Of a stretch of 64,000 nt of DNA, positions 13,647-44,895 are shown piece after piece (positions within the stretch are counted from its first letter, which is position 1; the number at the start of each line of letters is the position of its first letter). The DNA comes from a virus: IMG/VR virus record IMGVR_UViG_3300045988_082442, positions 32,001 to 96,000 of that record; one strand, 5' to 3'. Position numbers and translations under genes: made by a program. The notes below the pieces were generated by a model. That model was not told the DNA's origin. It made no database searches and saw only the letters and a program-made list of their open reading frames with translations.

Positions 13647-14720
13647 ATGGAAATTGTATTTAACAGAACATTACTTATAGATGGAAGTTATATGTTACAT
13701 CGTCAACTTTCTGTCATAAATCAATGGGATTTACAAACAACAACTGGTAAAAGAACTGGTGGTGTATTTGGAGTTATAAAGAGTGTATTCAAGGAAATGC
13801 AAAAATATAACTATTTTCCAATAATGGTGTTTGATGGTGGCTTAGCTCCAAGAAGATTAGCACTATATTCAAACTATAAGAGAAATGAAGAAAAACAGTT
13901 ATTATTAGAAAGTACTAGCTATACTGAAAAGACAGAACAACAACTAATGGATGAAGCATTTATGAGAGAATACAGAACACAAAGAAAAGACATAATAGAA
14001 TTTATGCATGGTATGGGTATTCCTTGTATTAGAATAAAAGACTGGGAGGGTGATGACTTATTATATATTCTATCTAAAATGTCAAAAGACAGTATAATAA
14101 TTTCTGATGATAAAGATTTAATTCAAGCTGCATTTGAAGATGAAAATAGAAGATGTAGAATTTGGAGAACTATGCATGAGGAAATGCTTGATACTCATAT
14201 ACTGGAAAAAGAAGGTCTAAATGCTTGGAGTTATATAAATAGAAAAGCTATTTGTGGTGACCCATCTGATAATATTCCTTCTGCTTGTTATGGTGTTGGA
14301 GAAAAGACAGCATTAGACTTAATAAAACTTTATGAAAGTTGTAAATTAAATAATGTTAGTTTTCCACATGATGAAAACAGTTTAGCTGATGCTTGTATTA
14401 AAGCTGGTATTTCAAAGAGAAAGGCATATACTAATTTTGATGAAGCACAATTCATTATCAATATGGAATTGATGAATTTAAAACTTGTAGATAATGACAT
14501 TACAGAACAATTTGTTAATAAATTATATGATGAAATAATGATGGAACTAGAGATGCCAGATGAAAATATAATAAGAGATAAAATAGAAGAACTAGAAATG
14601 TTCTCATTAGATACTAAATCAATGAGAAATAAGGTTATTAAATTAAAAGATTATTTAAAAATAGAGGATAGACAAAAAGTAGAAAATCACTCAGAAGAAA
14701 CAATCACTCATTTATTTTAG
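13647..14720 (+). CDS. 5'-3' exonuclease / flap endonuclease (RNase H-like)
   Basis: Contains LLIDGSYM, VFDGG, EGDDLLY, ISDDKDL and ICGDPSDNIP..GVGEKTA (H3TH), which are the FEN/Pol I 5'-nuclease motifs. Confidence 0.88.
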   Translation: MEIVFNRTLLIDGSYMLHRQLSVINQWDLQTTTGKRTGGVFGVIKSVFKEMQKYNYFPIMVFDGGLAPRRLALYSNYKRNEEKQLLLESTSYTEKTEQQLMDEAFMREYRTQRKDIIEFMHGMGIPCIRIKDWEGDDLLYILSKMSKDSIIISDDKDLIQAAFEDENRRCRIWRTMHEEMLDTHILEKEGLNAWSYINRKAICGDPSDNIPSACYGVGEKTALDLIKLYESCKLNNVSFPHDENSLADACIKAGISKRKAYTNFDEAQFIINMELMNLKLVDNDITEQFVNKLYDEIMMELEMPDENIIRDKIEELEMFSLDTKSMRNKVIKLKDYLKIEDRQKVENHSEETITHLF

Positions 14721-14762
14721 AAAAAAGCTAAAAAAATTTAAAGAAGTATAGATTTTTAGGTT

Positions 14763-14780
14763 ATAAGATGTTATATTATA
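14763..14780 (+). promoter_or_regulatory. promoter cassette variant (ATAAGATGTTATATTATA)
   Basis: Recurrent motif. It is enclosed by a 9-bp inverted repeat AGGTTATAA/TTATAACCT. Confidence 0.45.
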
Positions 14781-14842
14781 TAGGAGGTATAGCTTTTTAT
14801 AACCTTTTAAATTTTATTATAGGAAATGGGGCATAAAACGTA

Positions 14843-17209
14843 ATGATTAAGTTAAAACCAAAAGACATAAATTATACAATGTCTACATATTTGAAAAAGA
14901 AATTAAAGAAAGAAACTATAAAAAATAGTGACGACTTAATGTATATATTGACTAATGATAATAAATCATATAGAGAGATTCTTAATGAAGTAGGTTCAGA
15001 TATTCCAGATGAAGAGTTTTATGAAACTGTTAATGAATTTATGGAAACAAACCCTTTTAAAAAAGAAAGAAAGGGTATTGCTGAGCTTGAAGGAGATAAT
15101 ATAAGAGTATCTTATACTGTTGATACAGATGGTATGGCTCACTGGTTAGAATTAGAAGATTTAAACACATACTTATTTAATGATGTCAATGAAGGGAAAT
15201 ACTCTGATTTAGAATTATCTAAATTAGTTATAAATGCCTTTTCAAAAGCATACCCAGTTATTCCAAATAAAGGGGTTGTTTGTTTTGACTTAAAACTTAT
15301 TGCTGATAAATCTGAGGGGAAATTGTCCTTATATGATGTAGCAAGATATTTTTATAGAGCAAGTAAATGTGGATTCTATAAAGTAGTTAAAACCAGATTA
15401 AATGTAGGTAATATACATACAATATTTATGTGCAAAATTGAACATTCTGATTATATGTATCTTGATGGAGAATCATTTGATACTTGTATTAAAGTTCCTA
15501 CCCATAAAGGAGTTGCAAGACTTCAAGATATGTTCAAAGAAGATACTGATTTATCAGAAGAAGATGTAGAATTATCAGAAATAAGATATAATGTTAGAAC
15601 ACCTCATGTTCTATATTCAAATCATTCATTACATTTAATGCCAGATGGTTCTATTGGTTATATCCTAAATAGTTTATTCATAGGAGCAAAAATCAAATAT
15701 ATAAGTAATAGAGGAGTATCATGTGATATTGTTGCTATACACTCAAACAAGAAATGGGATTGTTTCTCAAAAGTAACACATGGAAAAGAAGTTCTAAGAC
15801 AAGCCTATGATGATAAAATGTCAGAAAAGATATATAATAATCATATCATAGTATATGGATTTACATTTGGAGATGATACAACACTTTGTAGCAAGTTATT
15901 TAGTGAACAAAATGACAAGAAAAGCAGAAATATAATGAGCCTTGAAAGTGGATGGTTTATTACTCCTTCTGGAAGTAATATTAAAGGTATCTACATATAT
16001 GATAAAGATACTAAATGGCATACTATTAAGCAAGAGTGTATTGAATATACTGAAAGAAGAGGTGTCAGATTAGAAACTGAAAGAGAGAAAATAGTTAGAG
16101 AAAATAGCATAAGCAGTATTGAAAGTGTAATAGGTAAGAACACAAATATAGATGGTATGTGGTCTTCTTATGATAGCATAAAATACTCAAAAACAGTTTT
16201 AGATAGCATAGGGGGTAGTGTCCCTTTATTAACAAGTGAAGATATAGATGATATGTTAGTTACAGATGTAACTCAATTTGCTCTATATCTAACTATAATA
16301 AAACCTTATATGTCTTATATAAGTTGGAAGATAGACCTTGAAATGAAAGATTTTAAAGGTATGGTTGTTGATGAATTATGTGCTGGATATAATGGAATAT
16401 CTTATAACCCAATGATAATGGAAAATAAAGATAATTTCACAATGCACTATATAAATAGAAAAATAACAGAACTTATAGATTCTGGTATTTATTTCACAAA
16501 CCCAGAATTAGAAGATACTATTAAAAGTATCAGAAGAATAAGAAATAAAGAAGTAAAAGTTCAAGAAGTATCTTCTAAATTAGGTAAATATATAAATTTA
16601 GATGAAGTAGAAGATATATATAATACTATGAAATTGAGATATGATTATCTACTTGAACAAATATCTGAATTTAAACACATCAATGATTTAAACGGTAGAT
16701 ACAGAATGAAATTAGCTAGATTTTATCATAAATATAATAAAGCAACAGGTAAGAGATTACCAATACAAAATTTTAAAATAAATGTAATAGATTTAACAAG
16801 TGATATAATAAATGATAATAAAGAATATATTAAAAGAACAAATAATAAAGAAGCAAAAACAAAATTAAAAGAACTAAATAAATCATTAAGAAAACACTCA
16901 ATGACATTAAGAAAGAACATATTAAAAGAAACAATATTTGCAGATTATAAAACAAATAAAAAAGATATAAAATTAAATGAGATAAATAATGAAGTAAAAA
17001 CAAGATTACAAGATATAGTAACAGATGAATATTTAATAAATAATGGATACGATATGAGTAGAATAATTAAATTACAAGGGTATGTTGCTGATATTGAAAA
17101 CAGAATGTATGAGATAGAAGATGGGGATATATACTCTAATTCTCTTGGAAATCTAAATAATACTTTTGTTAGAGTAGATTGGCAACGAAGATTTGGGTTT
17201 ATTATGTAA
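14843..17209 (+). CDS. large hypothetical protein with a Lys-rich coiled-coil-like C-terminus
   Basis: 788-aa ORF with a weak RBS. No motif recognised. Confidence 0.7.
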   Translation: MIKLKPKDINYTMSTYLKKKLKKETIKNSDDLMYILTNDNKSYREILNEVGSDIPDEEFYETVNEFMETNPFKKERKGIAELEGDNIRVSYTVDTDGMAHWLELEDLNTYLFNDVNEGKYSDLELSKLVINAFSKAYPVIPNKGVVCFDLKLIADKSEGKLSLYDVARYFYRASKCGFYKVVKTRLNVGNIHTIFMCKIEHSDYMYLDGESFDTCIKVPTHKGVARLQDMFKEDTDLSEEDVELSEIRYNVRTPHVLYSNHSLHLMPDGSIGYILNSLFIGAKIKYISNRGVSCDIVAIHSNKKWDCFSKVTHGKEVLRQAYDDKMSEKIYNNHIIVYGFTFGDDTTLCSKLFSEQNDKKSRNIMSLESGWFITPSGSNIKGIYIYDKDTKWHTIKQECIEYTERRGVRLETEREKIVRENSISSIESVIGKNTNIDGMWSSYDSIKYSKTVLDSIGGSVPLLTSEDIDDMLVTDVTQFALYLTIIKPYMSYISWKIDLEMKDFKGMVVDELCAGYNGISYNPMIMENKDNFTMHYINRKITELIDSGIYFTNPELEDTIKSIRRIRNKEVKVQEVSSKLGKYINLDEVEDIYNTMKLRYDYLLEQISEFKHINDLNGRYRMKLARFYHKYNKATGKRLPIQNFKINVIDLTSDIINDNKEYIKRTNNKEAKTKLKELNKSLRKHSMTLRKNILKETIFADYKTNKKDIKLNEINNEVKTRLQDIVTDEYLINNGYDMSRIIKLQGYVADIENRMYEIEDGDIYSNSLGNLNNTFVRVDWQRRFGFIM

Positions 17210-17245
17210 CTAAATCTTGCTAACCATTGGTACCGTAAGTGTTCA

Positions 17246-17275
17246 AGACTTTTAAAAATAAGGGTTTAAAAGTCT
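17246..17275 (+). terminator. hairpin after the 14843-17209 gene (weak terminator candidate)
   Basis: 11-bp stem AGACTTTTAAA/TTTAAAAGTCT with an 8-nt loop. The tail ATTTA is poor. Confidence 0.4.
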
Positions 17276-17652
17276 ATTTAGTGTTCCCAAAAATATTTAC
17301 AGTATCAGTAATTTTTTGAATTTTTTAAAAAAGTGTTATAAGTTTTAAAATATAACAAGCATTATTTTAGAAGTTTTCTAAAATCCTCAATTTTGCTAAC
17401 ACCCTCTCTAAAATTCTGGAAATTGTTATAAAAATTTCGGACATTCTCCCAGTTCCTATTAATAAGCTTCCTAGATTGGATTAGCTCTAAGCTTAAAAGA
17501 CCAATGATACAAATTTTAATATTTGTTATTCCAAAGGGTATTTAATTATTCTCCCCTCAAATGATTATATGTTTATATCTTATCCTCTTCAATATTCTGT
17601 CTAGTATCCTGTGTTTATTTCTATTTAGGTTCTAAATATTAGATAACCCATA

Positions 17653-17694
17653 GGAAAGTATTTGTCTAGTATAAAGGTCAAAAACAAATACTTT
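17653..17694. repeat. perfect 12-bp inverted repeat (hairpin) in an ORF-free region
   Basis: GAAAGTATTTGT (17653-17664) pairs with ACAAATACTTTC (17683-17694), leaving an 18-nt loop. Confidence 0.7.
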
Positions 17695-17936
17695 CAAAGA
17701 GCAGTTAGGAAGCAGAATATTCATTTTAAGTAAAGCACCCTCCTGAGTGCTTTGGAGTATTTGAACTTTTCCAGAAATTCTCCTTCTAACTAAAAATATT
17801 AAAGTATGCTAGTAATAAATTTAGAATAAAATATATCTCTTATAAGCTTTAAAATATATCAAGTATTTATTAGTTTTGTATAAGCTTTAAAATACTTCAA
17901 GCATTTAAGTAGTTTTAGAATATAACAATTTATTAT

Positions 17937-17951
17937 CAAAAGATGTTATAA
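17937..17951 (+). promoter_or_regulatory. extended -10 promoter cassette (AAAAGATGTTATAAT)
   Basis: TGnTATAAT with a conserved AAAGA upstream. The RBS and ATG of the helicase gene follow within 26 nt. Confidence 0.6.
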
Positions 17952-17976
17952 TATATGAAAGGTAGGTACATAACAA

Positions 17977-21767: not shown

Positions 21768-22865
21768 ATGAAATTATTTTTATATTCAGATGTACATATA
21801 AGTAGAACAAGTAGTATTCTACCAACAGTTAGTGAAAATGAAAAATATACATACAGACAGAATATGATTATAAAAACAGCAGAATGGATGTCAGAGATTA
21901 TAAAACAAGAAAATGCTGATATGATAATAAATTTAGGAGATACTTTTGACCAAAACACAATTACAAGTTATGATGTAGAAACAGCAAGTGAGTTTTTTAA
22001 GAGATTTCCTTCTGGTATTCGTCATCTTGTATTATGTGGAAATCATGAAATGTTAAATAGTAAAGATAATGTATTAAAGCTTCTAAACAATATAGAATGT
22101 ATCTCAGTAATAGATACAGTAACATCAATAGATAACTTATTATTGGTACCATATTGTGATTATAAGGATTTAGACCTTACATCTTACAATGAAGCTGACT
22201 ATTTGTTTTTACATCATGATGTTTATGGGAGTCAAATTGCACCAGGCAGAGTTTTAGATTTTGGTATTGAACAAAATAGTTTATCTAAATTTAAAAGAGT
22301 ATTTAATGGGCATGTTCATGCATCAAGTAAATTTGGTAATATTGTAAATGTTGGTAGCATAACAACTCATTCATTTGCAGATAGTCCTATTTCATATCCT
22401 ACTTGCTATATATTTGATACAGTTACAGGTGAACTAAAAGAGTTTTATAATAGAAATTGTCCTTTATTTAGAAAGATAAAGGCAGATACAATTCAGGAAT
22501 TACAAAATTATTTAGCAGTAAATTTGGAACAAGGTTGGAACTATATATTACATATTGACTGTTCTTTTGAAATAAAGAGTTCAGTAGAAGATATTATTAA
22601 GAATAGACCAAATGTTCTTAACTATAAGATTACTACAAAATCTATTAAACAAGATGGAGTTCCCGAATTAGAAAATACTAAAATAGAAAGCAACCTTGAT
22701 GTTAAGAAGTCATTCAAGGATTTCCTAAATACTGGTATTGAATTAAGATACCCAATGAATTTATATAATGAAGTAATTGGGGAAATAAAAGATAAAGAAG
22801 AAAATGTTAAAACAGACGATAAGATTGAAATATTGTCAAGCAATAAAGCAAATTCATTATTTTAG
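21768..22865 (+). CDS. sbcD: Mre11/SbcD-like nuclease
   Basis: Carries the calcineurin-like phosphoesterase motifs YSDVH, GDTFD, GNHE, HH and GHVH. Confidence 0.85.
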   Translation: MKLFLYSDVHISRTSSILPTVSENEKYTYRQNMIIKTAEWMSEIIKQENADMIINLGDTFDQNTITSYDVETASEFFKRFPSGIRHLVLCGNHEMLNSKDNVLKLLNNIECISVIDTVTSIDNLLLVPYCDYKDLDLTSYNEADYLFLHHDVYGSQIAPGRVLDFGIEQNSLSKFKRVFNGHVHASSKFGNIVNVGSITTHSFADSPISYPTCYIFDTVTGELKEFYNRNCPLFRKIKADTIQELQNYLAVNLEQGWNYILHIDCSFEIKSSVEDIIKNRPNVLNYKITTKSIKQDGVPELENTKIESNLDVKKSFKDFLNTGIELRYPMNLYNEVIGEIKDKEENVKTDDKIEILSSNKANSLF

Positions 22866-23104: not shown

Positions 23105-25786
23105 ATGAACTTAATACAAAATATTTTTCAAAACCCCAATTTTAAAGTTGAGGGTGACCATCATAAATTAAAGAAAAGAATATTGAAAGATATAATCAAC
23201 ATGAACTGGTTTAACGATTGTGATTTACTTATAGGATATTCAGATGGTCAAAGAGTATATACTAATCCAAAGCAATGGCAATTAGATGCAGCAAATAGTT
23301 TATTTGAGTTTTATTGGAATTATACAGTTGATAGATATACTAATTATGACGCACTAGAGGATGAAATTTATAACCACATGAAGAACTCAAAATATGTAGG
23401 GGTACAAACAACAGTATTACCAAAATTTACAATACCATTTAGAGCAGATAGTGGACAATGCATGATAGATGAAAATGGAAATCAAACATTTAGAGATGGA
23501 ACACCAACTAGACCATTTTATTCTTTAATCTATATTGCACAAAATGGATTTATTGATTTTGATGATAAGATTAGATTAAAAGACTGGGATTCAGTTATAA
23601 GAAGTAACCCTAAATATTTAAGATACTTTGAAACTTGTTTAGACCATTTTGCAGATGGTGAAAATAGTGTCAAGAAACAAATAAGAGATTTAGTTAAAAC
23701 ATATAAAGATTTTAGAGATTATTTGGACCCTAATCTTCCAATAGTAGAAGATAGAAAATGGTTGTATGATTTCTGTGTTGAAGTAGATGTAAAGTGTGAC
23801 CCTTATAAAAATTATGAAACAGAATTATTACATAAAAATGGTTTTATAGTTATGGGTGGTAATGAATATATTTATTATAATGATATACCATGTGTAAACT
23901 GTGGAAAACCACATTATAGAAATGGTTTATGTAAAGACTGTTGTGAAATGAATTTTAGAGATAGAATGATAGGTAATAAACTATATGGAAAAGCAAGTCA
24001 AAGAAGTAACTCAATGCATCTAAACGAAATAAAGTTAGCAGGTGCAGCTGCAAGTGCAAGTTCAAGTAGTTATAGAGTTAGTGGGGATACATCAAGACAA
24101 GCACACAGTATGGATGATGAGAGTATTATATCAGCAAGTACAAGTGCAATATCTAGCAGAGCAAGTAGAGCTGCAGGAGAACCAGCAACAGTAGGTATAA
24201 ATACATCTGGAAATTCAGCAGTTATAGTAGATGATGATATTGGTAACGCAGCAAGTTCAAATAGGTCAAGTTTTGTAAGTAGAGCTGCAGGTGTAAATCT
24301 ATCAAGTAGTATTACAGGTGTATCAACAGCAGTTTCAGAAGAAAGAATGTCAGACGCAAGTCATACAGCAGTAAAAAGTAACCCAAGTAGAGCTTCAGGT
24401 ATAACAGTTAGCCAGAATACAACTGGAATATCAACAGCAGTTTCAGAAGAAAGAATGTCAGACGCAAGTCATACAGCAGTTGCAAGTAAAGTAAGTAGAA
24501 TGCCAGGACAAAATATGGGAAATGTTACACAGGTAGGTACAACAACATCTGCTAGTAGTACATCTGTATCAGATGATGGTATTGGGGCAGCAGCAAATAC
24601 CAGTGTTTCAAGTGGAAGCAGTCAGTCAAGGGGACAAAATATTGGTATGCAAAAACCAAGTGCAACATCAAGTGTAATTGATGAGGAAACTTTACAATTT
24701 GCAAGTTATGATAGTAGAGTTGCAGCATTTACACATACTTCTGGTGCCTCAGATGTAACATCAAATGAAGAAGTACAAAGAGCAGGATTGGAATCAAGAA
24801 CAGCAGGTTTTCAAACAGCAGTTAGAGCTGTAAATATAGGAAACAGTGAATTTGCAAATTCTAGAACAAGAGTTGGTGTTAGCGTTGGAACTACAACATC
24901 AGAGCAATCATTTGCAAGGAATAAAGATACAGTTGATGAGACTGGAAAAGCAAGTAGGAGTAGTATTATAACATCCCCATCAGCAACAAATATAAATGAT
25001 GTTAATTTTATAGGAAATATAAAAGACTTTGTTTATACATCTCCTAATACAGTTAGATACTATTCATCTCAAGGTAAGATATTCGATATGACCATACCAA
25101 AAGGTTATAGATACCCAGATAATATATCAACAAATAGATTCTTTATGTTTGGTAGTTTTAATGGTAATCTTGAATTATTAAAACAATTCTGTCCACAAAA
25201 TGCTTTCGTATTTGACCCATTTGCAGGTCATGGAGATAGAGCATTATTCTTTATGGAATATGGTTGTAAAGCATATATAGGAAATGATACTAACGTAAAA
25301 GAATGGACATTTTTAAATGATAATCTAATCAAGTTAATAAACAAATACAAGAGATTTAACCAAAAATGTGAGGTTAGAATAAAGAACTCAATGATATATG
25401 AACCAGAATTAGAGAATAAAGTAGACTTTGTTTACACATCCCCACCATATTTTGATTTTGAAATGTATGATGGATTTACTGAACAGATAGCAGGAATGAA
25501 AACATACGATGACTTCCACAGAGAGTTTTCAGTACCTATATTCAAAAATGTATATAGATATATGAAAGATGGTGGTGTAGTTATTCTACAAACAGAAAAA
25601 GATGCAAAATTAAAACAAAAGTGGATAGATATGATGGTTAGTGTTGGTTTTAAAAACATTACAGAACATGATTTAAGTAATGAACAAAAACATGGAATAA
25701 ATAAAACTATTCAAGAGATAGGTATATTTGTTAAAGGTGACTATAACAGGGGAGAGGTAAAACAAACAACTAACACATTATTTTAG
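23105..25786 (+). CDS. three-part protein: conserved N-domain with Zn-ribbon, Ser/Ala-rich linker, C-terminal SAM-dependent methyltransferase domain
   Basis: VFDPFAGHGDRAL (motif I, FxGxG-like) is followed about 75 aa later by FVYTSPPYFDF (motif IV, SPPY). CVNCG..CKDCC sits in the N-domain. It is a paralogue of the next gene. Confidence 0.8.
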   Translation: MNLIQNIFQNPNFKVEGDHHKLKKRILKDIINMNWFNDCDLLIGYSDGQRVYTNPKQWQLDAANSLFEFYWNYTVDRYTNYDALEDEIYNHMKNSKYVGVQTTVLPKFTIPFRADSGQCMIDENGNQTFRDGTPTRPFYSLIYIAQNGFIDFDDKIRLKDWDSVIRSNPKYLRYFETCLDHFADGENSVKKQIRDLVKTYKDFRDYLDPNLPIVEDRKWLYDFCVEVDVKCDPYKNYETELLHKNGFIVMGGNEYIYYNDIPCVNCGKPHYRNGLCKDCCEMNFRDRMIGNKLYGKASQRSNSMHLNEIKLAGAAASASSSSYRVSGDTSRQAHSMDDESIISASTSAISSRASRAAGEPATVGINTSGNSAVIVDDDIGNAASSNRSSFVSRAAGVNLSSSITGVSTAVSEERMSDASHTAVKSNPSRASGITVSQNTTGISTAVSEERMSDASHTAVASKVSRMPGQNMGNVTQVGTTTSASSTSVSDDGIGAAANTSVSSGSSQSRGQNIGMQKPSATSSVIDEETLQFASYDSRVAAFTHTSGASDVTSNEEVQRAGLESRTAGFQTAVRAVNIGNSEFANSRTRVGVSVGTTTSEQSFARNKDTVDETGKASRSSIITSPSATNINDVNFIGNIKDFVYTSPNTVRYYSSQGKIFDMTIPKGYRYPDNISTNRFFMFGSFNGNLELLKQFCPQNAFVFDPFAGHGDRALFFMEYGCKAYIGNDTNVKEWTFLNDNLIKLINKYKRFNQKCEVRIKNSMIYEPELENKVDFVYTSPPYFDFEMYDGFTEQIAGMKTYDDFHREFSVPIFKNVYRYMKDGGVVILQTEKDAKLKQKWIDMMVSVGFKNITEHDLSNEQKHGINKTIQEIGIFVKGDYNRGEVKQTTNTLF
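24321..24480 (+). repeat. in-frame 108-nt-period duplication containing a perfect 52-nt repeat
   Basis: TATCAACAGCAGTTTCAGAAGAAAGAATGTCAGACGCAAGTCATACAGCAGT occurs at 24321-24372 and again at 24429-24480. It encodes STAVSEERMSDASHTAV twice. Confidence 0.9.
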
Positions 25787-25800
25787 AAAGAGGTTTTATA

Positions 25801-27714
25801 ATGAATCTAGTACAAAATATTTTTCAAAACCCTAACTTTGAGATAAAAGGAGATAGGGATAAATTAAAACAGAAAATAGCAAAAGATGTCATAAATATGT
25901 ACTGGTGGAATGACTGTGGTATCCTTAAAGGATATGACAGCTCATTCCGAGTATATGCCAACCCAGAGATATGGCAGTTAGATGCAGCAAATGACCTTTA
26001 TGAATACTATTGGAATAAACAACAGGATAGCGTTACACTGGACAAATTAGAGGATAGTATTTATAGATATATGAGAAGTAATACTGAATTTGATACAAAT
26101 AATGGTTATTTATCTACTTTTAATATGAAATATAGAATGGACCCACAGCAATTTATGTATGATAAAGAAGGAAATCAAACATTTAGAGATGGTACACATA
26201 ACAGAGCATTCTATTCATTAGTCTATTTAGGTCAAAATGGATTTATAGATAGAGATGGGTATTTAAAAATATGTGATTTTGATACAGCAATTTTAGGAAC
26301 TAAATATGAGAAATTCTTTAAACTTTCTAAACATAGAATAAAAAGTGAGAAGAGCATGGTATCAGAGGAAATAAATAAGTTAAAAGATGGCTATATGAAA
26401 TTTGATAAATATTTAGACCCAAATTTACCAGTATTAGAAGATAGAAAATGGTTATATGATTTCTTTATGTATGTTGAGTTAAAATGTGACCCATTTAAGA
26501 ATTATGAAGTTGAATTACTTGAAAAGAATGGTTCTATTGTAGGCTCTGGAAATGAAGATATTTATGTTGAAATAGATGGTAAGAAGTGTGCTAATTGTGG
26601 GGTTAATGAACCATATATAAATGGACTTTGTAAAGACTGTCAGGATGTAAAAATAAATCATAGTTCTAGAGCAACAAGAGCTTCTGGTGCAAGTATAGCA
26701 GTAAGAAGTATAGATGCAAATATACAAGACGCATCAGTTATGGTAAATACAACTAGCCACACATATCAACCAAGAGGTGAAAGAGTAGATGCAAAAGAAA
26801 GAGTAGATAGAATATCAAGTACTAGCACATCTTGTATTGCAAATACAGACATAGTAACATCAGCAGCATTTTCTACAAAAGCTTCAGCAACATATAGACC
26901 AAGAGGAATTAGGGTAACTAATAATCAATATATTGGTGGTATTAAATATTTCAAATACAATGAAGATGGTACAGTGCATTATGATTTCCCAAGTGGTAAG
27001 ATACAAATGGATATGTCAGTACCAGAAGGTTATACATATCCAAAACAGATAGCTATTGATAGATTTGCTATTTATGGTAGCTTCAAAGGTAACCCAGAGT
27101 TATTAAGACAGTTTTGCCCACAAAATGCCTTTGTATTTGACCCGTTTGCAGGTCATGGGGATAGAGCTTTGATGTTTGCTAAATGGGGTGTAAAGACCTA
27201 TATAGGAAATGATACTAATTCAAGAGAATGGAGTTGCTTGAATAACACACTTATGCCTTTATTAAATAAATACAAAAAGTTTGGACAATATTTTGAAGTA
27301 AGAATTAAAGACTCTAAAATATATGAACCAGAACTAGAAAATAAAGTAGATTTTGTTTATACATCTCCACCTTACTTTGATTTTGAGGTATATGATGGAT
27401 TTGCTGAACAAATAGAGGGTATGAAGGATTATGATGATTTTCATAAGTATTTCTCAACACCTATATTTACAAATGTATATAGATACATGAAAGACGGAGG
27501 CATAGTAATATTACAGACTGAAAGAATAAATAAATATAAGAATAAATGGATAAAGATGATGGAAAATGTTGGCTTTAAATGTTTAGACAGTAATGTATTA
27601 AATACAAAGAATGCAATGGCAAAAAGAGTTAATATGCTTCAAGAAGTTGCAATATTTGTAAAAGGAAATTATAAAACAGATGATGTAAAAGTACAACAGA
27701 ACACATTATTTTAA
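25801..27714 (+). CDS. paralogue of 23105-25786: same N-domain, shorter linker, same methyltransferase domain
   Basis: The N-terminus MNLVQNIFQNPNF.. and the C-terminal domain (FDPFAGHGDRAL, FVYTSPPYFDF, VYRYMKDGG) are collinear with the preceding protein. Confidence 0.8.
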   Translation: MNLVQNIFQNPNFEIKGDRDKLKQKIAKDVINMYWWNDCGILKGYDSSFRVYANPEIWQLDAANDLYEYYWNKQQDSVTLDKLEDSIYRYMRSNTEFDTNNGYLSTFNMKYRMDPQQFMYDKEGNQTFRDGTHNRAFYSLVYLGQNGFIDRDGYLKICDFDTAILGTKYEKFFKLSKHRIKSEKSMVSEEINKLKDGYMKFDKYLDPNLPVLEDRKWLYDFFMYVELKCDPFKNYEVELLEKNGSIVGSGNEDIYVEIDGKKCANCGVNEPYINGLCKDCQDVKINHSSRATRASGASIAVRSIDANIQDASVMVNTTSHTYQPRGERVDAKERVDRISSTSTSCIANTDIVTSAAFSTKASATYRPRGIRVTNNQYIGGIKYFKYNEDGTVHYDFPSGKIQMDMSVPEGYTYPKQIAIDRFAIYGSFKGNPELLRQFCPQNAFVFDPFAGHGDRALMFAKWGVKTYIGNDTNSREWSCLNNTLMPLLNKYKKFGQYFEVRIKDSKIYEPELENKVDFVYTSPPYFDFEVYDGFAEQIEGMKDYDDFHKYFSTPIFTNVYRYMKDGGIVILQTERINKYKNKWIKMMENVGFKCLDSNVLNTKNAMAKRVNMLQEVAIFVKGNYKTDDVKVQQNTLF

Positions 27715-31862: not shown

Positions 31863-32080
31863 TGAAATTGATAGATGGTGATAATACCTACAATGTTTTA
31901 ACTTTAAATTTAGATGAGGGAGATGTATTGGTAGTTGATTTTAAGGATAATCAGCCAAATGCAGAATCCCTATCTAAATATAGGGAATATTTGAAAGATA
32001 TATTTCCTAATAATAGAATATTATTTATATCAAATGGTATAGAGTTAGGAATCATAAAGGGAGGTAGTAATATTGAGTAA
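31862..32080 (+). CDS. hypothetical protein
   Basis: ORF lying between spoVG and groEL. Confidence 0.55.
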   Translation: MKLIDGDNTYNVLTLNLDEGDVLVVDFKDNQPNAESLSKYREYLKDIFPNNRILFISNGIELGIIKGGSNIE

Positions 32081-33912: not shown

Positions 33913-34332
33913 GTGAAACAGAGTAGTTTTGAGAAAAGGTTGAATAAAGTTTTAAAAGAAGAGGAACACTATGTTTTAAATATATTATTACTTTCATACC
34001 TTACGGATGACGAAAGCTATAAAGACATAGCCGAGTTATGTTTTATGTTTGATGAGTATTCTAACTTTAAAAAGTTTATAAAATATTATGGTGGTAAAAC
34101 ATTGAAGATACCAACACAGGAAGAATTAAGACTAGCATTAAAACATTTACTATTATTTCAATATGTTAAAATAGATGGCATGAGTTTAGATGATGGATAT
34201 AAAAGTGTTAATTTGAAAGATTTAGGTGTTAGTAAGGAAGAGGCATCAAATACAATAGATAGATTTTATAATTATTTAAAAGAAAATGGCAATGAAATAT
34301 TTAGAGGTAGAAAAAGAAATAAACTATTTTAG
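33913..34332 (+). CDS. hypothetical protein (C-terminus ..RKRNKLF)
   Basis: GTG start with an AGGTGA RBS. Confidence 0.55.
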   Translation: MKQSSFEKRLNKVLKEEEHYVLNILLLSYLTDDESYKDIAELCFMFDEYSNFKKFIKYYGGKTLKIPTQEELRLALKHLLLFQYVKIDGMSLDDGYKSVNLKDLGVSKEEASNTIDRFYNYLKENGNEIFRGRKRNKLF

Positions 34333-37477: not shown

Positions 37478-37494
37478 ATAGATGTTATATAAAT
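37478..37494 (+). promoter_or_regulatory. promoter cassette (ATAGATGTTATATAAAT)
   Basis: Second tandem copy, immediately upstream of the RBS. Confidence 0.5.
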
Positions 37495-37511
37495 TAGGAG
37501 GTAGTACATAT

Positions 37512-38327
37512 ATGAATGAAGATTATATTAACGAGAGATGGAATGAGTTTGTTGGATTATTGAGAAAGACAAACAGAGATGGAATTGAAAGCTTGATAAG
37601 CTGGCTGGATACAAAGTCTGATTTTAAATATGCACCAGCAAGCACTAGATACCATCTAAACTGTAAGGGTGGTCTATTAGTACATTCTTTAAATGTTTAT
37701 TATACACTTATAGATGACTTTAAACCATTTATTGATATTTTTAAGATACCAGAGGATACTTTAATAATATCTGCATTACTACATGATATATGCAAGGCAA
37801 ATACATATACAACAGAGATGAGAAATGTAAAAAGAAATAACACCTGGGTACAGGAACCATACTATGCAACTGACGATGTATTCCCATTAGGACATGGAGA
37901 AAAAAGTGTTATTATTCTTCAAAACCACATAAAGTTAAATTCACTAGAGGTTTTAATGATAAGATGGCACATGGGATATTCAGACAGACCACAATATGAT
38001 GGACCTATTTCAGATGCCTATACTAAATTTCCACAGATATTAGTTTTAAATTGGGCAGATTGTGCTTCAACATTTATGATAGAAGGAAATTCAGAGGGAA
38101 CAGAGAAATTTAACTATGCTGGGTTTGATAATCTATTTGAAGGTAGAAGTGTTACAGATAGTTTAAACATTATGAATAAACCAAAAGAGATTGTTGTTGA
38201 TGGTACAACATACGAATTAGCACCACCAGATGCTGTTGTAGATGGTAACGAGATAATAATAGTTAATGCCTATAATGGGCAACCAGTAAAAGTTTATGCA
38301 CCATACGAAGATGGTCTACCATTTTAA
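37512..38327 (+). CDS. HD-domain phosphohydrolase (YhaM-like HD pattern)
   Basis: Contains YHLNCKGGLLVHSL, LLHDICK, GHGEKS and RWHMG. I chose the start at 37512 because it has a GGAGG RBS. Confidence 0.65.
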   Translation: MNEDYINERWNEFVGLLRKTNRDGIESLISWLDTKSDFKYAPASTRYHLNCKGGLLVHSLNVYYTLIDDFKPFIDIFKIPEDTLIISALLHDICKANTYTTEMRNVKRNNTWVQEPYYATDDVFPLGHGEKSVIILQNHIKLNSLEVLMIRWHMGYSDRPQYDGPISDAYTKFPQILVLNWADCASTFMIEGNSEGTEKFNYAGFDNLFEGRSVTDSLNIMNKPKEIVVDGTTYELAPPDAVVDGNEIIIVNAYNGQPVKVYAPYEDGLPF

Positions 38328-38339
38328 GGAGGTATTTAT

Positions 38340-39248: not shown

Positions 39249-39250
39249 GA

Positions 39251-40354
39251 ATGTTTGATTTATTAAATGCTAAATTGATTAGTGATGCAGAAGAAGTTGA
39301 GTTAGTAAGACCAAATGAGATAGCAATTTTAGAAGATGGGGAAGATAAACCTGCAGTATATCTTATTGAGAAGGGGGCAGCAAAATTTCTATATAAACAA
39401 TTAGGAATTAGTCAAAGTACAAGTAAAGAGTTATATAAGAATAACAGAGAAATATGGAAAACTTTTATAGAATCACAATTAGAAGATAAAGATGGTAAAA
39501 GAGCACCTTTTAAATTTACAGATAGTAATGTTAGATATATGGTTGATAATAATGGTAGCCTTGTAGACATGACAATAATGTCAGATGACTATTTTGAAGA
39601 TTTACAAAGTAAATTAGATATATTTACAATGGAAGTTGGCTCATTAGAACATACCAGAAAGTTTTATTTTGAGGGCAGTAACGGATTAGTAAAACTAATT
39701 ATCTATGATGCAGAAGCAGATATTGTAGAAGATAAATATACACCAGTAGTTATATTAGAGGTAAATAATAAAAAGGCAGAATATTCTGTATATACAGGTA
39801 TTATAATTTATGATTCATTTACAACATTTATACCATCTATGAACCCAGTTGTAACATATCAGTCATATATAGATTTTATAATGGGTGTAAATATATTAGG
39901 TACATTAGATATGTCAAAGGAAAAATCAGAAGATTTATATAATGCTTATCTTGATTTTAAATCTAGCCATGTTGAAATTTCATTAAGAGAGGTAATAAGA
40001 ATTTTAACAAAAGTTGGTTATAAATTAGATGTTAAGGAAGATGCAACATTAGATGATATAAGTAATCTAAATGACGAAGAAGCCAATATAGTATTAAAGA
40101 ACTTCTTTAATTCATTTAAAACAAAAACAGGTGAGTCAGCAGAGGATTTATTGAATTTAAGTGAAATAAGAAAGATATTTAGATATAACAAATTGACAAT
40201 AGTGGAATTATTGGAAATTTTATCAAAACAATATATCAGTGAAGATGGTGCAAAAATAACTGCTCAAATACTAAGTGATTTGGTATTTGGGTTATACACA
40301 AAGAAAACAGACAGTATAGATGCAAAAGGAATTATAGATGATATAAATAATTAG
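39251..40354 (+). CDS. hypothetical protein
   Basis: ORF with a GGAGAGGG RBS. Confidence 0.65.
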   Translation: MFDLLNAKLISDAEEVELVRPNEIAILEDGEDKPAVYLIEKGAAKFLYKQLGISQSTSKELYKNNREIWKTFIESQLEDKDGKRAPFKFTDSNVRYMVDNNGSLVDMTIMSDDYFEDLQSKLDIFTMEVGSLEHTRKFYFEGSNGLVKLIIYDAEADIVEDKYTPVVILEVNNKKAEYSVYTGIIIYDSFTTFIPSMNPVVTYQSYIDFIMGVNILGTLDMSKEKSEDLYNAYLDFKSSHVEISLREVIRILTKVGYKLDVKEDATLDDISNLNDEEANIVLKNFFNSFKTKTGESAEDLLNLSEIRKIFRYNKLTIVELLEILSKQYISEDGAKITAQILSDLVFGLYTKKTDSIDAKGIIDDINN

Positions 40355-40365
40355 GAGGGTTTAGT

Positions 40366-40749
40366 ATGTCATTTTCATTAGGTAATATGAATGTTGTGAA
40401 ACAGATAAAATCAAGCAATGGACAGGTTAAAAGAGATGCGATAGCAAAATGCTATGTAGTAATAAAGAAACAAGAAAAGATAACAGAGAATATAAGAAAA
40501 GCTTTAACAACTTATCTGACAACACGTTTGAAATCAGTATCAAGTACTAATTTATCTAGTGATTTACTACAGGATAACATCATAGAATTACTAGAGTTTT
40601 GCACACATAAAATATATGAAGCAATTACTATGGAAGATGTTATTGAATGTGAGGACCAAATATTACAGCAAATATATTGGTGTACTAAACACATGAATAC
40701 CAAAAGATTGATATTTGACGAATTTGAATATAATTCATCAAATAATTAG
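40366..40749 (+). CDS. hypothetical protein
   Basis: ORF with a TAGGAGGG RBS. Confidence 0.6.
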   Translation: MSFSLGNMNVVKQIKSSNGQVKRDAIAKCYVVIKKQEKITENIRKALTTYLTTRLKSVSSTNLSSDLLQDNIIELLEFCTHKIYEAITMEDVIECEDQILQQIYWCTKHMNTKRLIFDEFEYNSSNN

Positions 40750-40766
40750 GTTAAGAGGGATAAAAC

Positions 40767-41459
40767 ATGGCAGATATAGAAATAGAGTTTATAAAGAAAT
40801 TGGTACCCAGTCTTAACAGTATTACAGATAATGATGGGTACCTAATGAACAGATTTAAGGCATATAGAAATTTCATGGAACAGTCAGAAGTACCAGCAGA
40901 ATATATCTATACAATTTTAGAGAATCCAATGTCAGTTTCTGTTGCAATGAAACAGGAAGATGTCAGAGAGTTTTTTAATAATGTATCAGGGTTTTTAGAC
41001 AACGAGTTCAATTGTATTTTTAGATTTAGAGATGAGAGGGAATGTATAAAGTCAGCAGAGAAAGTATCAGCTTTTATAATTCAAAACTATATAAAACATT
41101 ATTTAGCATCAAATGAATACATGAAAAGGATGCTTTATATTGATACAGTATCTTTAATGGATGATTTGAAAAGAGTAATAAATTACAGTATGAGTTCAGA
41201 GACATCTATAAAAAGGACCTTTAATCATAACTACGAAACTTTAAGTAATGGAATTGAGAATTATGATTTTGTTATTTGGAATAGTCTTATGAGTCTAAAA
41301 ACAGATTATGAAAAAGAAGAACTAAATAGAATTTTGACAGTAAGACATAAAAAGGGTTTAAGTAATTTATTTATGGTATATGGGGACAACGGAAGTATTT
41401 GTGAAAAATTAGGTATTGCACATAGAATGCTAACAGGTTGTGGTGTTGTTGACATATAG
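40767..41459 (+). CDS. hypothetical protein (position suggests a helicase-associated factor)
   Basis: ORF with RBS, immediately upstream of the dnaB-like gene. No P-loop. Confidence 0.55.
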   Translation: MADIEIEFIKKLVPSLNSITDNDGYLMNRFKAYRNFMEQSEVPAEYIYTILENPMSVSVAMKQEDVREFFNNVSGFLDNEFNCIFRFRDERECIKSAEKVSAFIIQNYIKHYLASNEYMKRMLYIDTVSLMDDLKRVINYSMSSETSIKRTFNHNYETLSNGIENYDFVIWNSLMSLKTDYEKEELNRILTVRHKKGLSNLFMVYGDNGSICEKLGIAHRMLTGCGVVDI

Positions 41460-41480
41460 CATATAGAGGGAAGGTTCAAT

Positions 41481-42737
41481 ATGATAGATAGAATAGATGT
41501 GGAGTATGCACTACTGTTAAGTGTAGTTGAGAATAAGAATTTTGAAATTTTACTTAAAAATGATATAACTGAGGACTATTTTAGTAATACTGGTAAATTG
41601 ATATACCATCATATTGAAGATTATCTTAATAAATATTCAGAGTACATGCATGTAAATAATATACTTAAAGAGTTTGATATAGATTTAGATTATTATTCTA
41701 GCTTGAAGCTATTAGGTAACACACAATCTTTTATGGATACATTAAAACAACAACATGCATCAGATGTAATAGTTGATAAGTTGAGTGCTCTGAATGCAAG
41801 TTCAGGGTTGATATATACACAACCAGTAGAATTTCTGAAGTCTTTTGATGCAACTAATGATAGTTTAAAGCAACTTTTGGTAGAAAGGAAATCAGTAAAT
41901 TTATTAGATAACTTAGATAAGATTTTACAGTTAGATAGAAATAATGTTATAAAGACAGGATTTAAAGAACTAGATGATAAACTAATTGGTTGGAACAAAG
42001 GTGAGGAGCTTATAATTCTTATGGGTAGACCAGGACAGGGTAAATCATTTTTAGGTTTAAAGTTTTCTTTGGCAGCAGCAATACAGAAGTATAGAGTTGG
42101 TATTTATTCTGGAGAGATGTCAGAGGAACAAGTACAAAAAAGACTTATTATGCTAAATAAACAAGGTAGAACAATGACAGATGCAGAGTCAATAAGTGAT
42201 ATGAGAGCAAAAGATTTAAAACTTACGCTACTAACACAAAAAGAGTTACAAGGAAGAGCAACAGTAAAAGATTTAGAGTCAATGATATTAAAAGATGAGT
42301 TAGATTTTTTATTTGTAGACCAATTATCATTAATGGATGATTACCATTCAAGGGTATATGATACAAGAACCAGATTTGCAAATATATCAGCAGATTTGTT
42401 TTCATTGTCAATAAAATATTCAATACCAATAGTTTTAGCAGTACAAAGTAACAGAGATGGTGGTCTACAGAAAGATGCACCACAATTAGAGAATATAGCA
42501 GAATCAGATGTTGTAGGACAAAATGCAACAAGGGTTATTGGTATGAGAAGGGAAGCAAATATAACTACAATGAATATCTCAAAAAATAGATATGGTGATG
42601 ATAAGTTTATGCAAAAATATGATACAGATTTTGAGTTAGGTAAGTTTACACCAATAATGACAGCAGAGTCACCACTTGCACAAGCACAGGTACAATCACA
42701 GGCAAGAAAAAGAACATTAGGTTCTAGATATTTCTAA
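41481..42737 (+). CDS. dnaB: DnaB-type replicative helicase
   Basis: Contains GRPGQGKSFLGL (Walker A) and FLFVDQLSLM (Walker B) in a RecA-like C-domain, with a DnaB-like N-domain. Confidence 0.88.
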   Translation: MIDRIDVEYALLLSVVENKNFEILLKNDITEDYFSNTGKLIYHHIEDYLNKYSEYMHVNNILKEFDIDLDYYSSLKLLGNTQSFMDTLKQQHASDVIVDKLSALNASSGLIYTQPVEFLKSFDATNDSLKQLLVERKSVNLLDNLDKILQLDRNNVIKTGFKELDDKLIGWNKGEELIILMGRPGQGKSFLGLKFSLAAAIQKYRVGIYSGEMSEEQVQKRLIMLNKQGRTMTDAESISDMRAKDLKLTLLTQKELQGRATVKDLESMILKDELDFLFVDQLSLMDDYHSRVYDTRTRFANISADLFSLSIKYSIPIVLAVQSNRDGGLQKDAPQLENIAESDVVGQNATRVIGMRREANITTMNISKNRYGDDKFMQKYDTDFELGKFTPIMTAESPLAQAQVQSQARKRTLGSRYF

Positions 42738-42799
42738 TAAACATTTATAAGGATAATTTTACAATCCTTGCAAGAAGTTGCGAACTGTGTATTTTGATA

Positions 42800-43033
42800 T
42801 TTTTATAGCTATATAGGATAGCACAGATGTGAAAGAATAAGAATTTGCTTTATTAAGTACATGGTGTTTTATAGCTATATAGAATAACACAGGTGTAAAA
42901 GTTATACAATTATAAAACACGGTCATTTTGTGTTTTATAGCTATATAGAATAACACAGGTGTAAAAGAAGGTATATGATACAAGAACTAGATTTTCAGTT
43001 TTATAGCTATATAGAATAACACAGGTGTAAAAG
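42800..43033. CRISPR. mini-CRISPR array: four 36-nt repeats (one degenerate) and three 30-nt spacers
   Basis: GTTTTATAGCTATATAGAATAACACAGGTGTAAAAG occurs at 42866, 42932 and 42998. A copy with 5 mismatches is at 42800. The spacers at 42836-42865, 42902-42931 and 42968-42997 are all exactly 30 nt. Confidence 0.8.
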
Positions 43034-43081
43034 GTTGATATCCAACTAAATTTTTACAGTTTTAGATATGGGAGTAAGTAT

Positions 43082-44107
43082 ATGTATAATGTTGATTTTT
43101 TATTACAGTTAAAAGAGTATTTATATTCAAAAACAGGAAAAGTATATTTCAATAATATAAGAGATGGTAAAGAAGATATATTATGTACTTGTCCTATTCA
43201 TAAAGGTGGACAGGAAAGACACCCTAGTTGTGGTTTTTCTAAAATAGATAAAGAAAATATTAGTGCTGGATGGTTTCATTGCTTTAATTGTGGATTTACT
43301 GGTAATACATATACAGTTTTAAAAGAACTATTAGGTGAAAAGTTTGATAAAGAAGAAGCAAATAAAGTATTAGGAATTGAAGATTTTGAAGAAGATTATA
43401 GATTAAATAATAACCCAATAATCTTTACTATTCCACCAAAGGAACCAGTTAAATATGTAAGTAGAAAAGAATTAGAACAATACAGATACTATTCAGATTA
43501 TTTAAAATACAGGAATATCTCAATGAATACAGCAAATAAATTTGATATTGGAATGGATATAAGAACAAATGAAATAACATTTCCAATTAGAGATTATACA
43601 GGTAGGGCTTTAGCAGTAGGTAGGAGAAGTATTGCAGGAAAGAGATATGAGTACCCTTTGGGGTTTACAAAGCCATTGTATGGTGTTTATGAGTTACCAG
43701 TAATAATGAAAAATCAATATGTATGGGTTGTTGAAGGACCATTTAATCTGTGGAGTTTATATGAATATAAAGAAATAGGTGTAGCATTGTTAGGTACAGG
43801 AACACAAAGACAATTAGAACAGTTACTGACATTAGATTGTAAAGGTTTTATGTTGGCATTAGATGGGGATAAAGCAGGTAGAAGAGGTATAACAAAAATA
43901 GCTAAATTCTTACAAAGACATGGAAGAGAAGTTAGAGTGTACTGTGTACCAGATAATGAGGATATAAATAGTATGCCATCAAACTTATTTCCACAAATGG
44001 CAATAATGACATTTAGAGAATGGAGTAAGATGATAGCAAGAAGATTTAAAGATGAAGATAATTCTGGTAACAAAGATATACAACCAGAATTAGAGGATAT
44101 GAATTAG
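43082..44107 (+). CDS. dnaG: DnaG-type DNA primase
   Basis: Contains a zinc finger (CPIHKGGQERHPSCGF..CFNCG) and the TOPRIM motifs VVEGPFN and LDGDKAGRRG. Confidence 0.88.
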   Translation: MYNVDFLLQLKEYLYSKTGKVYFNNIRDGKEDILCTCPIHKGGQERHPSCGFSKIDKENISAGWFHCFNCGFTGNTYTVLKELLGEKFDKEEANKVLGIEDFEEDYRLNNNPIIFTIPPKEPVKYVSRKELEQYRYYSDYLKYRNISMNTANKFDIGMDIRTNEITFPIRDYTGRALAVGRRSIAGKRYEYPLGFTKPLYGVYELPVIMKNQYVWVVEGPFNLWSLYEYKEIGVALLGTGTQRQLEQLLTLDCKGFMLALDGDKAGRRGITKIAKFLQRHGREVRVYCVPDNEDINSMPSNLFPQMAIMTFREWSKMIARRFKDEDNSGNKDIQPELEDMN

Positions 44108-44121
44108 GTAATTACATCTTT

Positions 44122-44138
44122 AAAAGATGTTATTATAT
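44122..44138 (+). promoter_or_regulatory. promoter cassette (AAAAGATGTTATTATAT)
   Basis: Recurrent motif, about 85 nt upstream of the ATG at 44224. Confidence 0.55.
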
Positions 44139-44223
44139 ATGAGATTATTAAATCTCAAAATAAAATTTTATAGGCTCAAAAATTATAAGGGGTGAGCACC
44201 CAAACAAGAAAGGAGAAAATAGC

Positions 44224-44895
44224 ATGGGAAGAATTAATGTAGACCAAGCAGAAAAATTAAATGAAAGAAAGGGAGGAAATTATTTCAAAATAAACCAAGA
44301 CGAAAGTAAACAAGTAAGGTTTTTATGGGATTCAGCATCTGAAATTGCTGAAAAATGGTTATTTGGAGTACACTCAGTAACATCAGTAAGCCCAGATGGT
44401 TCAAGACACTATGCAATAGTAGATTGTCCAAAATCTGGTGGGGACCCAGATGCAATTTGTAAATATTGTGCAGGGGAAGTTATGAACCCAAATAACAGTA
44501 AAATTGTAACAGTACCAAGAGTTGTAATTCCATTATTCAATATAGATGAAGGAAGCATTCAATATTGGGTAAGAAGTTATGATTGGGTAAAGAAATCATT
44601 ATTACCAGTATTAGAGGAATCATCAGGATTACCAAGTTTAGCAAACCAAACATTTAAAGTTAAAAGAGCTGGTTCTGGATTAGATACATCATATACAGTT
44701 TTACCAGTAATCAACTCAAATGATGCTAGAACAAAAAATGATTTTGGTGAAATAAAAGACCCATTTGATTTAGGAATAATCAAGAGATATGGGGAAGAAA
44801 ATAATCAAAATCAAGGACAAAATCAAGGTCAAGGACAACCATTTGGTCAAGCACCACAAACAGGATATCAAAGAAGAACAACAGAAATGTTTTAA
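44224..44895 (+). CDS. candidate single-stranded DNA-binding protein (gp32-like Zn site, Gln/Gly linker, C-terminal ..EMF tip)
   Basis: Contains H..CPKSGGDPDAICKYC, a QNQGQNQGQGQ linker and a short terminal tail. It lies between the primase and polymerase genes. The assignment rests on architecture and position. Confidence 0.5.
   Translation: MGRINVDQAEKLNERKGGNYFKINQDESKQVRFLWDSASEIAEKWLFGVHSVTSVSPDGSRHYAIVDCPKSGGDPDAICKYCAGEVMNPNNSKIVTVPRVVIPLFNIDEGSIQYWVRSYDWVKKSLLPVLEESSGLPSLANQTFKVKRAGSGLDTSYTVLPVINSNDARTKNDFGEIKDPFDLGIIKRYGEENNQNQGQNQGQGQPFGQAPQTGYQRRTTEMF

Follow-up and report, generated by a model that had tools for sequence, protein, structure and literature searches.

C-terminal Leu-Phe tips on replication-module proteins of an uncultured AT-rich phage as candidate docking motifs for a phage-encoded beta clamp

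Peptides that bind sliding clamps are well known, and in eukaryotes and archaea the PIP-box logic of PCNA partners tethers FEN1 and DNMT1 to the clamp by a terminal peptide. Bacterial partners of the beta clamp use QL(S/D)LF-like peptides, often at a terminus, in which Leu-Phe is the anchor and whose consensus tolerates variation (PMC9690074). In phage Mu, work published in 2026 describes Mor and MuC as binding beta via a terminal x[D/E][L/M]F and QPDLF for late transcription (PMC12867686). Not every aromatic phage tail is of this kind, since the tail of T7 gp2.5 contacts polymerase and helicase (PMC4124056). The sequence considered here, called the window throughout, is a stretch of 64,000 nucleotides from a virus (IMG/VR record IMGVR_UViG_3300045988_082442, positions 32,001 to 96,000). 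An initial annotation made from the letters alone had pointed to eight of its proteins, mostly of DNA metabolism, that terminate in an aromatic tip, and had proposed the phage's own beta clamp as the hub to which these tips bind. Our analysis finds the eight to be a heterogeneous set of five tails ending in Leu-Phe (LF tails) and three tails of other kinds. We consider it probable, at roughly 0.6, that the five LF tips are a minimal clamp-binding motif that would dock onto the phage's own beta clamp.

All eight C-termini read exactly as they had been described, and the statement that few other proteins end this way can be sharpened, as no other of the 82 open reading frames (ORFs) of the window ends in Phe and the eight all lie within 13.6-44.9 kb. 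The protein identities given at the outset for FEN, SbcD, SSB, DnaB, the HD hydrolase, the beta clamp and the clamp loader were all confirmed. From composition, 3.2 terminal Phe residues would be expected among the 82 ORFs where 8 are seen (binomial P=0.014). The excess is far sharper for the dipeptide, with five LF ends against 0.29 expected, about 17-fold (P about 1e-5), a count that amounts to about four independent cases because two of the carriers, the methyltransferases MT1 and MT2, are paralogues. As an empirical background we used 329 non-redundant ORFs from related AT-rich phage loci (referred to below by L numbers), none of them homologous to the eight. Seven of these end in Phe (2.1%; window versus background, Fisher P=0.002), and a single one, an HNH endonuclease, ends in LF (Fisher P=0.0015), and the enrichment that the initial annotation had wished to see checked on the complete genome is present in the window.

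The LF class has the form x-[N/T]-x-L-F-COOH and comprises the tips ITHLF of FEN, ANSLF of SbcD, TNTLF of MT1, QNTLF of MT2 and RNKLF of a 139-residue protein, ORF139. Judged by its conservation in homologues, it is a real short linear motif. In FEN, where the tip follows a linker of about 14 residues, 98 of the 118 full-length homologues (43-71% identity) end in [LF][FLM], another 18 carry LF, FF or IF at most 10 residues from the end, and two have neither. In this set the last two positions have entropies of 0.62 bits (-1) and 0.41 bits (-2), compared with 2.7-3.7 bits at positions -3 to -15. Likewise, [LF]F closes 31 of the 32 homologues of ORF139, and the AF2 model of ORF139 is all-helical with a pLDDT of 84.5 that falls below 50 at residues 134-139; this is the one LF tail modelled, and it is predicted to be disordered. 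Four short ORFs of distant loci ending in ..YKD[VLM]F, which an early alignment had grouped with ORF139, proved not to be homologues of it and were left out. For MT1, MT2 and SbcD the comparison is with the genomes of one subclade (L002/L004, L105, L106, L107 and L108), and LF is kept in three to four of them while the preceding 10-25 residues diverge. The MT1 tips in three other genomes are SNTLF, SNTLF and TNTLF, those of MT2 in relatives are QNKLF, SDTLF and KNTLF, and those of SbcD in the subclade are SSNLF, FGALF and MNTLF after a diverging linker. The tails thus passed the conservation check on which the initial annotation had made its proposal depend, in FEN and ORF139 broadly and in the other three within the subclade.

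In several carriers the motif lies beyond the end of the protein proper. The SbcD tail comprises about 25 appended residues, and SbcD relatives at 51% identity or less stop straight after the conserved core without a tail; a methyltransferase homologue in a Staphylococcus Twort-like phage likewise stops at its last core strand, without a tail. Two sister phages have, between SbcD and MT1, an LF-tailed ORF of which the window has no homologue, namely a 291-residue ORF in L002 (11182-12057; HNH endonuclease, phrog_959, 2.4e-10) that ends in ..SNKLF and a 288-residue ORF at the same position in L108 (19097-19963) that ends in ..SASHLF. Because the SbcD relatives and the Staphylococcus homologue stop at the core, and because unrelated ORFs in L002 and L108 bear the same ending, the LF tip is an add-on, gained independently by SbcD, the methyltransferases and the HNH-like ORF of sister phages.

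The two methyltransferase genes lie between sbcD and sbcC in this subclade only. Both proteins have a conserved N-terminal domain of about 280 residues with four Cys (a Cys4 motif), followed by a very long disordered linker rich in Ser, Thr and Ala (about 350 residues in MT1) and a complete small methyltransferase domain in which motif I (FDPFAGHG) precedes motif IV (SPPY). The half-match that Pfam reports at their C-termini is an artefact of the beta-class model. A SAM synthetase gene is found at 55125-56294. In the literature we did not find a paper that ties a bacterial or phage methyltransferase to a clamp-binding motif.

Two trivial origins of the shared ending were considered and rejected. 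A DNA-level motif behind Leu-Phe-stop would enrich the underlying 9-mer, TTATTTTAG, which occurs five times against 3.65 expected, and the LF signal is therefore one of the protein level. Recoding of stop codons does not apply either; the standard genetic code holds, because long ORFs run on without a break and homologues annotated by others have their stop at the corresponding position, and the stop codon of MT2 is TAA. TAG is the stop codon of four of the five LF-ending genes (13647-34332), compared with 29% overall (P about 0.03, on small numbers). A 93-residue ORF on the minus strand (6273-6554) has a near-terminal LF, ending in ..ILNKLFE. In L049, a distant phage locus of 38% GC whose SbcC is 28% identical, five adjacent ORFs of 231-460 residues (1236-5996) end in Leu-Trp (..SKLW, ..LELW, ..ETLW, ..SALW and ..GNLW), and L025 and L047 each have a single ..LW end; the L049 endings may be an analogous terminal motif of another lineage or may reflect a paralogous family.

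Table 1. Proteins of the window that carry terminal tips, and the polymerase, clamp and clamp-loader genes
Feature	Position	Strand	Supporting match or description	Terminal residues and position of the tip codons
FEN / 5'-3' exonuclease	13647-14720	+	Pfam 5_3_exonuc_N 8.5e-20; phrog_107	..ETITHLF; ITHLF at 14703-14717
SbcD/Mre11-like nuclease	21768-22865	+	phrog_100 1.6e-34	..KANSLF; ANSLF at 22848-22862
MT1	23105-25786	+	SPPY DNA methyltransferase	..QTTNTLF; TNTLF at 25769-25783
MT2	25801-27714	+	paralogue of MT1	..VQQNTLF; QNTLF at 27697-27711
ORF139	33913-34332	+	139-aa helical protein	basic tail RKRNKLF; tip at 34315-34329
HD phosphohydrolase	37482-38327	+	phrog_28876 2e-32	..EDGLPF; DGLPF at 38310-38324
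DnaB-type helicase	41481-42737	+	Pfam DnaB_C 6e-25	basic tail ..RKRTLGSRYF
SSB	44224-44895	+	phrog_14578 2e-11	Q/G-rich linker, tip RRTTEMF
Family A polymerase (PolA)	44913-47489	+	Pfam; exon 1 44913-46232, exon 2 46548-47489	N-terminal MADLF at 44913-44927
Beta-type sliding clamp	47527-48972	+	phrog_947; three domains (predicted)	
DnaX (gamma/tau)-like loader ATPase	52078-53088	+	Pfam DNA_pol3_delta2 5e-31, AAA, DNAX lid	
delta'-like loader subunit	53064-53891	+	Pfam DNA_pol3_delta2 2.7e-5	
delta-like loader subunit	53888-54880	+	phrog_20214 'clamp loader' 1.4e-6	

The initial annotation had credited the phage with a beta clamp and a clamp loader of its own, and this is borne out by the AF2 and Foldseek results for the clamp and by the Pfam and PHROG matches of the loader (Table 1). 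The clamp core (residues 105-481, 377 residues) was modelled by AF2 with a pLDDT of 95.1 and a pTM of 0.89, its top Foldseek matches are all bacterial DnaN (TM 0.76-0.83, 12-17% identity), and a profile of the clamp family retrieves DnaN chains from the PDB at 1.5e-26; Pfam gave no match on the clamp. The model thus places the phage clamp in the three-domain beta type, a cognate DnaN-like clamp of the kind that the bacterial motif binds, and not in the gp45 type, which is a PCNA-like trimer of two-domain subunits. The protein begins with a low-complexity extension of about 104 residues rich in Asn, Gln and Val (47527-47838; ..NNEVNNQVVNNQVTNNQVVNN..), and an extension of 80-115 residues is found in all close homologues and is lacking in the less similar beta clamps, which are about 360 residues long. 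The delta'-like loader subunit has a near-terminal LF, ending in ..EGLLFRSSV, or ..ESLLFKG in a relative.

A Leu-Phe pair also occurs in the polymerase, which is the obligatory client of a clamp, and in the delta-like loader subunit. The polymerase starts with MADLF, a candidate clamp-binding motif, and starts of the form M-x-(x)-L-F are found in all lineages examined (28-83% identity; MADLFDL, MPLFDI, MRLFSS, MALFNP, MGLFSK, MKLFSA), followed by a variable basic linker. With a clamp HMM, the beta clamp is found directly after PolA and next to the loader in most of the distant lineages; the HMM gave no match in L017, and in L010 the contig stops behind PolA. A group I intron of about 315 nucleotides splits the polymerase gene at about 46233-46547 (Rfam RF00028, 51.2 bits, E 4e-12) inside the motif SSD[FY]SQQE, between S and QQE, and the joined exons correspond to the unsplit gene of the closest relative. 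In the more distant L016 and L020, PolA is split at the same site by larger inserts. In the delta-like subunit, L62-F63 (54071-54076) lie within SKDLFKRKTLYVV (residues 58-70), which parallels the beta-binding wrench AMSLFASRQTLLLL of E. coli delta. L73-F74 of E. coli delta are reported, in the work of Jeruzalmi in 2001 that is listed in PMC9690074, to enter the beta cleft. The family alignment shows that the delta-like family keeps a hydrophobic pair at this place, L-F in the window and I-I, L-L or F-I in relatives.

For the five LF tails, docking onto the clamp is the reading with the best support, given the M-x-L-F start of the polymerase, the L-F that occupies the wrench position of the delta-like subunit and the appended nature of the tails. 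The proposal of the initial annotation, in which the clamp was the hub for all eight proteins, stands as the leading hypothesis for these five and is not supported for the other classes, which are SSB and DnaB, with T7-like tails, and the HD hydrolase, with DGLPF. We propose that the phage beta clamp would accommodate the Leu-Phe pair in its hydrophobic cleft, the site at which bacterial clamps bind the L-F of the delta wrench and of QL[SD]LF peptides. Clamps left on new DNA would then recruit FEN to remove Okazaki primers, SbcCD to process ends and hairpins, the methyltransferases to methylate the DNA immediately after replication and possibly a small regulator, and these clients would compete with the polymerase, which has the same L-F at its N-terminus. 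The tips behave as a clamp-binding motif should in being conserved on flexible segments, as seen from the FEN entropy, the ORF139 pLDDT and the SbcD linker. The likeness to the bacterial system of Pol II/IV/V, MutS, delta and Hda (PMC9690074) lies in a terminal L-F peptide that follows a flexible linker and is common to several DNA-metabolism enzymes, and in a three-domain clamp served by a DnaX-type loader. The phage differs in that its tails do not keep Q1 and L2, usually have N or T at position 2 and always carry the tip as the free C-terminus. It also differs in encoding the clamp itself, with only 12-17% identity to DnaN and the 104-residue N-terminal extension, in having a family A replicative polymerase with the motif at the N-terminus, and in its candidate clients, which would include DNA methyltransferases, SbcD and the HNH-like ORF.

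Several points weigh against docking onto the phage clamp. With respect to QL[SD]LF, L4-F5 are always present in the tails, Q1 is in register in MT2 only and position 2 is N or T, usually N. The clamp is only 38% identical between the window and a relative in which other replication proteins are 65-86% identical, and the tails stay constant. A MAFFT alignment of E. coli DnaN (sequence identical to 1mmi_A) with the phage clamps has a register that is clearly wrong at about 14% identity, and since this alignment is unreliable, conservation of the pocket is read from TTGSEIA (TxG) and the hydrophobic C-terminal strand only. The delta assignment is itself weak, as it draws on weak profile matches; one of seven members of the family matches PF21694 (DNA_pol3_delta_C, 5.5e-10), and the family profile found no match among PDB sequences. 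In one lineage (L022 and L031, 96% nucleotide identity) FEN ends in ..TLL and ORF139 in ..KLL, and ORF139 ends in ..KLK or ..KFK in other lineages; we do not use this covariation as evidence, because it is a single event and is blurred by the ..KLK and ..KFK ends. Taken together, the missing Q1 and L2 and a clamp that diverges faster than the tails make the host clamp or another phage protein a possible receptor, and the tips could bind the beta clamp of the host in addition to that of the phage or instead of it.

The alternative that survives best is that the LF tip is real and docks elsewhere, on the host beta clamp or on the phage SSB, RecA, DnaB, SbcC or the polymerase itself, which we regard as rather unlikely but as the most serious competitor. 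Motif conservation says nothing about the identity of the receptor, and constant tails next to a phage clamp of down to 38% identity would fit a receptor that belongs to the host and evolves slowly. Moreover, the phage SSB and DnaB themselves end in Phe, and terminal-Phe tails of the T7 kind bind polymerase and helicase, not the clamp (PMC4124056). Against a receptor other than the phage clamp stand, on the other hand, the terminal L-F of PolA in every lineage examined, with the clamp gene next to it in most, and the L-F of the delta-like subunit at the wrench position. We know of no SSB, RecA or helicase with a pocket for LF-COOH tips of its partners. Known ligands of beta clamps are, by comparison, anchored by the dipeptide L-F (PMC9690074, PMC12867686).

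Less probable by some distance is a role in protein turnover, in which the hydrophobic C-terminal dipeptide would be a C-degron that times the removal of early DNA-metabolism enzymes. Bacterial proteases such as ClpXP and Tsp recognize proteins by non-polar C-termini, all carriers are early or middle replication-module proteins, and their tails are exposed and disordered. A degron leaves the L-F at the N-terminus of PolA and inside the delta-like subunit unexplained, however, and the strict L-F, in place of generic hydrophobic residues, in 118 FEN homologues fits a specific pocket better; a protease gene linked to the module is not present in the region. That the endings arose by chance in an AT-rich genome with many TTT codons is hardly credible and, within the limits of sequence analysis, already refuted by the orthologues, since the modest enrichment of terminal Phe alone, the paralogy of MT1 and MT2, which inflates the count, and the three of eight tails that fall in other classes are outweighed by the roughly 17-fold excess of LF, its absence from 328 of 329 background ORFs, conservation at -1 and -2 while linkers vary, the unenriched nucleotide 9-mer and the independent gains in SbcD, the methyltransferases and the HNH-like ORF.

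The three remaining tails follow other rules than the five for which we favor docking on the phage clamp. The HD hydrolase keeps its DGLPF tip down to 43% identity, with one DGLPI, and this tip is a class of its own that resembles the bacterial SSB tip, DDD[IL]PF, rather than QL[SD]LF. The sequence ..[EK]DGLPF is found only on the HD hydrolase, and the SSB of the phage does not end in an acidic run followed by [IL]PF, so that the system differs from the bacterial one in having the SSB-tip-like peptide on the hydrolase and not on the SSB. By mimicry, the HD tip may compete for the pockets that bind SSB tips.

The SSB keeps its terminal Phe in most relatives at 21-52% identity, the exception being L012, which ends in ..RRRDED; at 21-30% identity the ends are ..RRGDNF, ..RREERF, ..RDEDDF and ..TEPVKF. 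A search for the SSB sequence in the PDB gave no match. The ends of DnaB in relatives are ..GSNTF, ..GGGF, ..GTKF and ..STFR, the last in the closest relative, and distant helicases have acidic tails that close in Phe or Trp. The DnaB gene is broken into two ORFs in L105 (17433-18696) and L106 (17448-18702), which could reflect a frameshift, an assembly error or an insertion. As in T7 gp2.5 and gp4, the terminal Phe is on the SSB and the helicase and is conserved in most of the distant relatives. The T7 tails are acidic, in contrast to the basic RRTTEMF and RKRTLGSRYF of the window, and those of distant relatives are acidic (..DDDFEVGVQF, ..RDEDDF). The DnaB tail forms a separate class that resembles the tail of T7 gp4. 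Because the terminal Phe of the SSB closes an acidic or basic tail like that of T7 gp2.5 or the SSB tip, we read the SSB as a hub rather than a client, and the SSB and DnaB tails together would mark hubs of a polymerase-helicase-SSB core rather than clients of the clamp.

Two other clamp systems resemble the locus in outline and differ in detail. The tail motifs of T4 gp43, gp33 and gp55 differ in sequence from the LF tails of the window. The T4/RB69 gp45 system shares with it a phage-encoded clamp as the hub and clients with C-terminal hydrophobic tails, and relatives of the window phage have a T4-type portal, with the difference that gp45 is a PCNA-like trimer of two-domain subunits and the clamp of the window is predicted to be of the three-domain beta type. 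ORF139 recalls T4 gp33 in being a small non-enzymatic candidate client. The PIP box belongs to another clamp family and has the form Qxx[ILM]xx[FY][FY]; the LF tails have no second aromatic residue, and paired aromatic residues stand in register in none of the eight.

ORF139 has a parallel in Mu Mor/MuC, in which a small phage protein bears a terminal ..[D/E][L/M]F or QPDLF that clamp-dependent late transcription requires (PMC12867686). ORF139 is similarly a small helical protein with an ..NKLF tip, and its YYGGxTIxIP segment recalls Mor/C proteins. Its match to Pfam Mor is weak (4 of 13 members of the family, best E 0.089), and Foldseek searches of PDB and BFVD with ORF139 found nothing significant, with 1rr7 at rank 13 (E 1.7); Mu also differs in using the host clamp. 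ORF139 as a clamp-coupled regulator is attractive but unproven. With this candidate included, a wider picture can be drawn, in a tentative way that we hold with less confidence than the docking itself, in which xLF-COOH, a minimal tip that a tail extension easily supplies, would bring the methyltransferases (for anti-restriction), SbcCD, a homing-type HNH enzyme and a small regulator to the freshly loaded clamp as to a toolbelt, where the N-terminus of PolA would share the cleft. The regulator might link late transcription with replication, in the manner of gp33 and gp55 in T4 and of MuC in Mu.

The window has a GC content of 28%, nearly all of its genes are on the plus strand, and metagenomic contigs of 202-216 kb carry proteins near-identical to those of the window. 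Its source is an uncultured AT-rich phage of about 200 kb; among cultured phages, megablast with the methyltransferase region gave no DNA match and tblastn with the clamp protein gave no match. The replication module comprises FEN, an SF2 helicase, SbcD, SbcC, the HD hydrolase, DnaB, DnaG, SSB, the family A polymerase, the clamp, RecA, three clamp-loader subunits and SAM synthetase, together with GroEL. A Cpn10/GroES-like ORF, a SpoVG-like ORF and a dUTPase also probably belong to it, judging from Pfam-annotated orthologues in L105-L107. A search for related loci seeded with the DnaB of the window gave no confirmed locus. Between a 788-residue ORF and the SF2 helicase gene, 767 nucleotides (17210-17976) contain no ORF of 30 residues or more, and Rfam found nothing there at its gathering threshold; this stretch could hold regulatory elements, an origin or an RNA.

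To our knowledge, hardly anything is known about the binding partners of phage-encoded beta clamps. The system described here would be a variant of the established principle of clamp-binding peptides, in which the clients are unusual and the polymerase is of family A. If the docking is real, a large clade of uncultured AT-rich phages of about 200 kb, apparently of the rumen or gut, would tether PolA by an N-terminal L-F, and the partner in this tether would be a very divergent beta clamp that is invisible to Pfam. Some PolA jumbo phages have been reported to have clamp loaders without a detectable clamp (PMC7824862). DNA methyltransferases and SbcD would become additional clients of a beta clamp, which would mirror DNMT1-PCNA in a prokaryotic setting and offer a way for phage DNA to be methylated during its synthesis. 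That SbcD, the methyltransferases and the HNH-like ORF gained the tip within the subclade would be a clean natural example of a two-residue motif rewiring a hub. Finally, the rule of an xLF-COOH that follows a variable linker would predict clamp clients among the unannotated ORFs of phages, of which ORF139 may be one.

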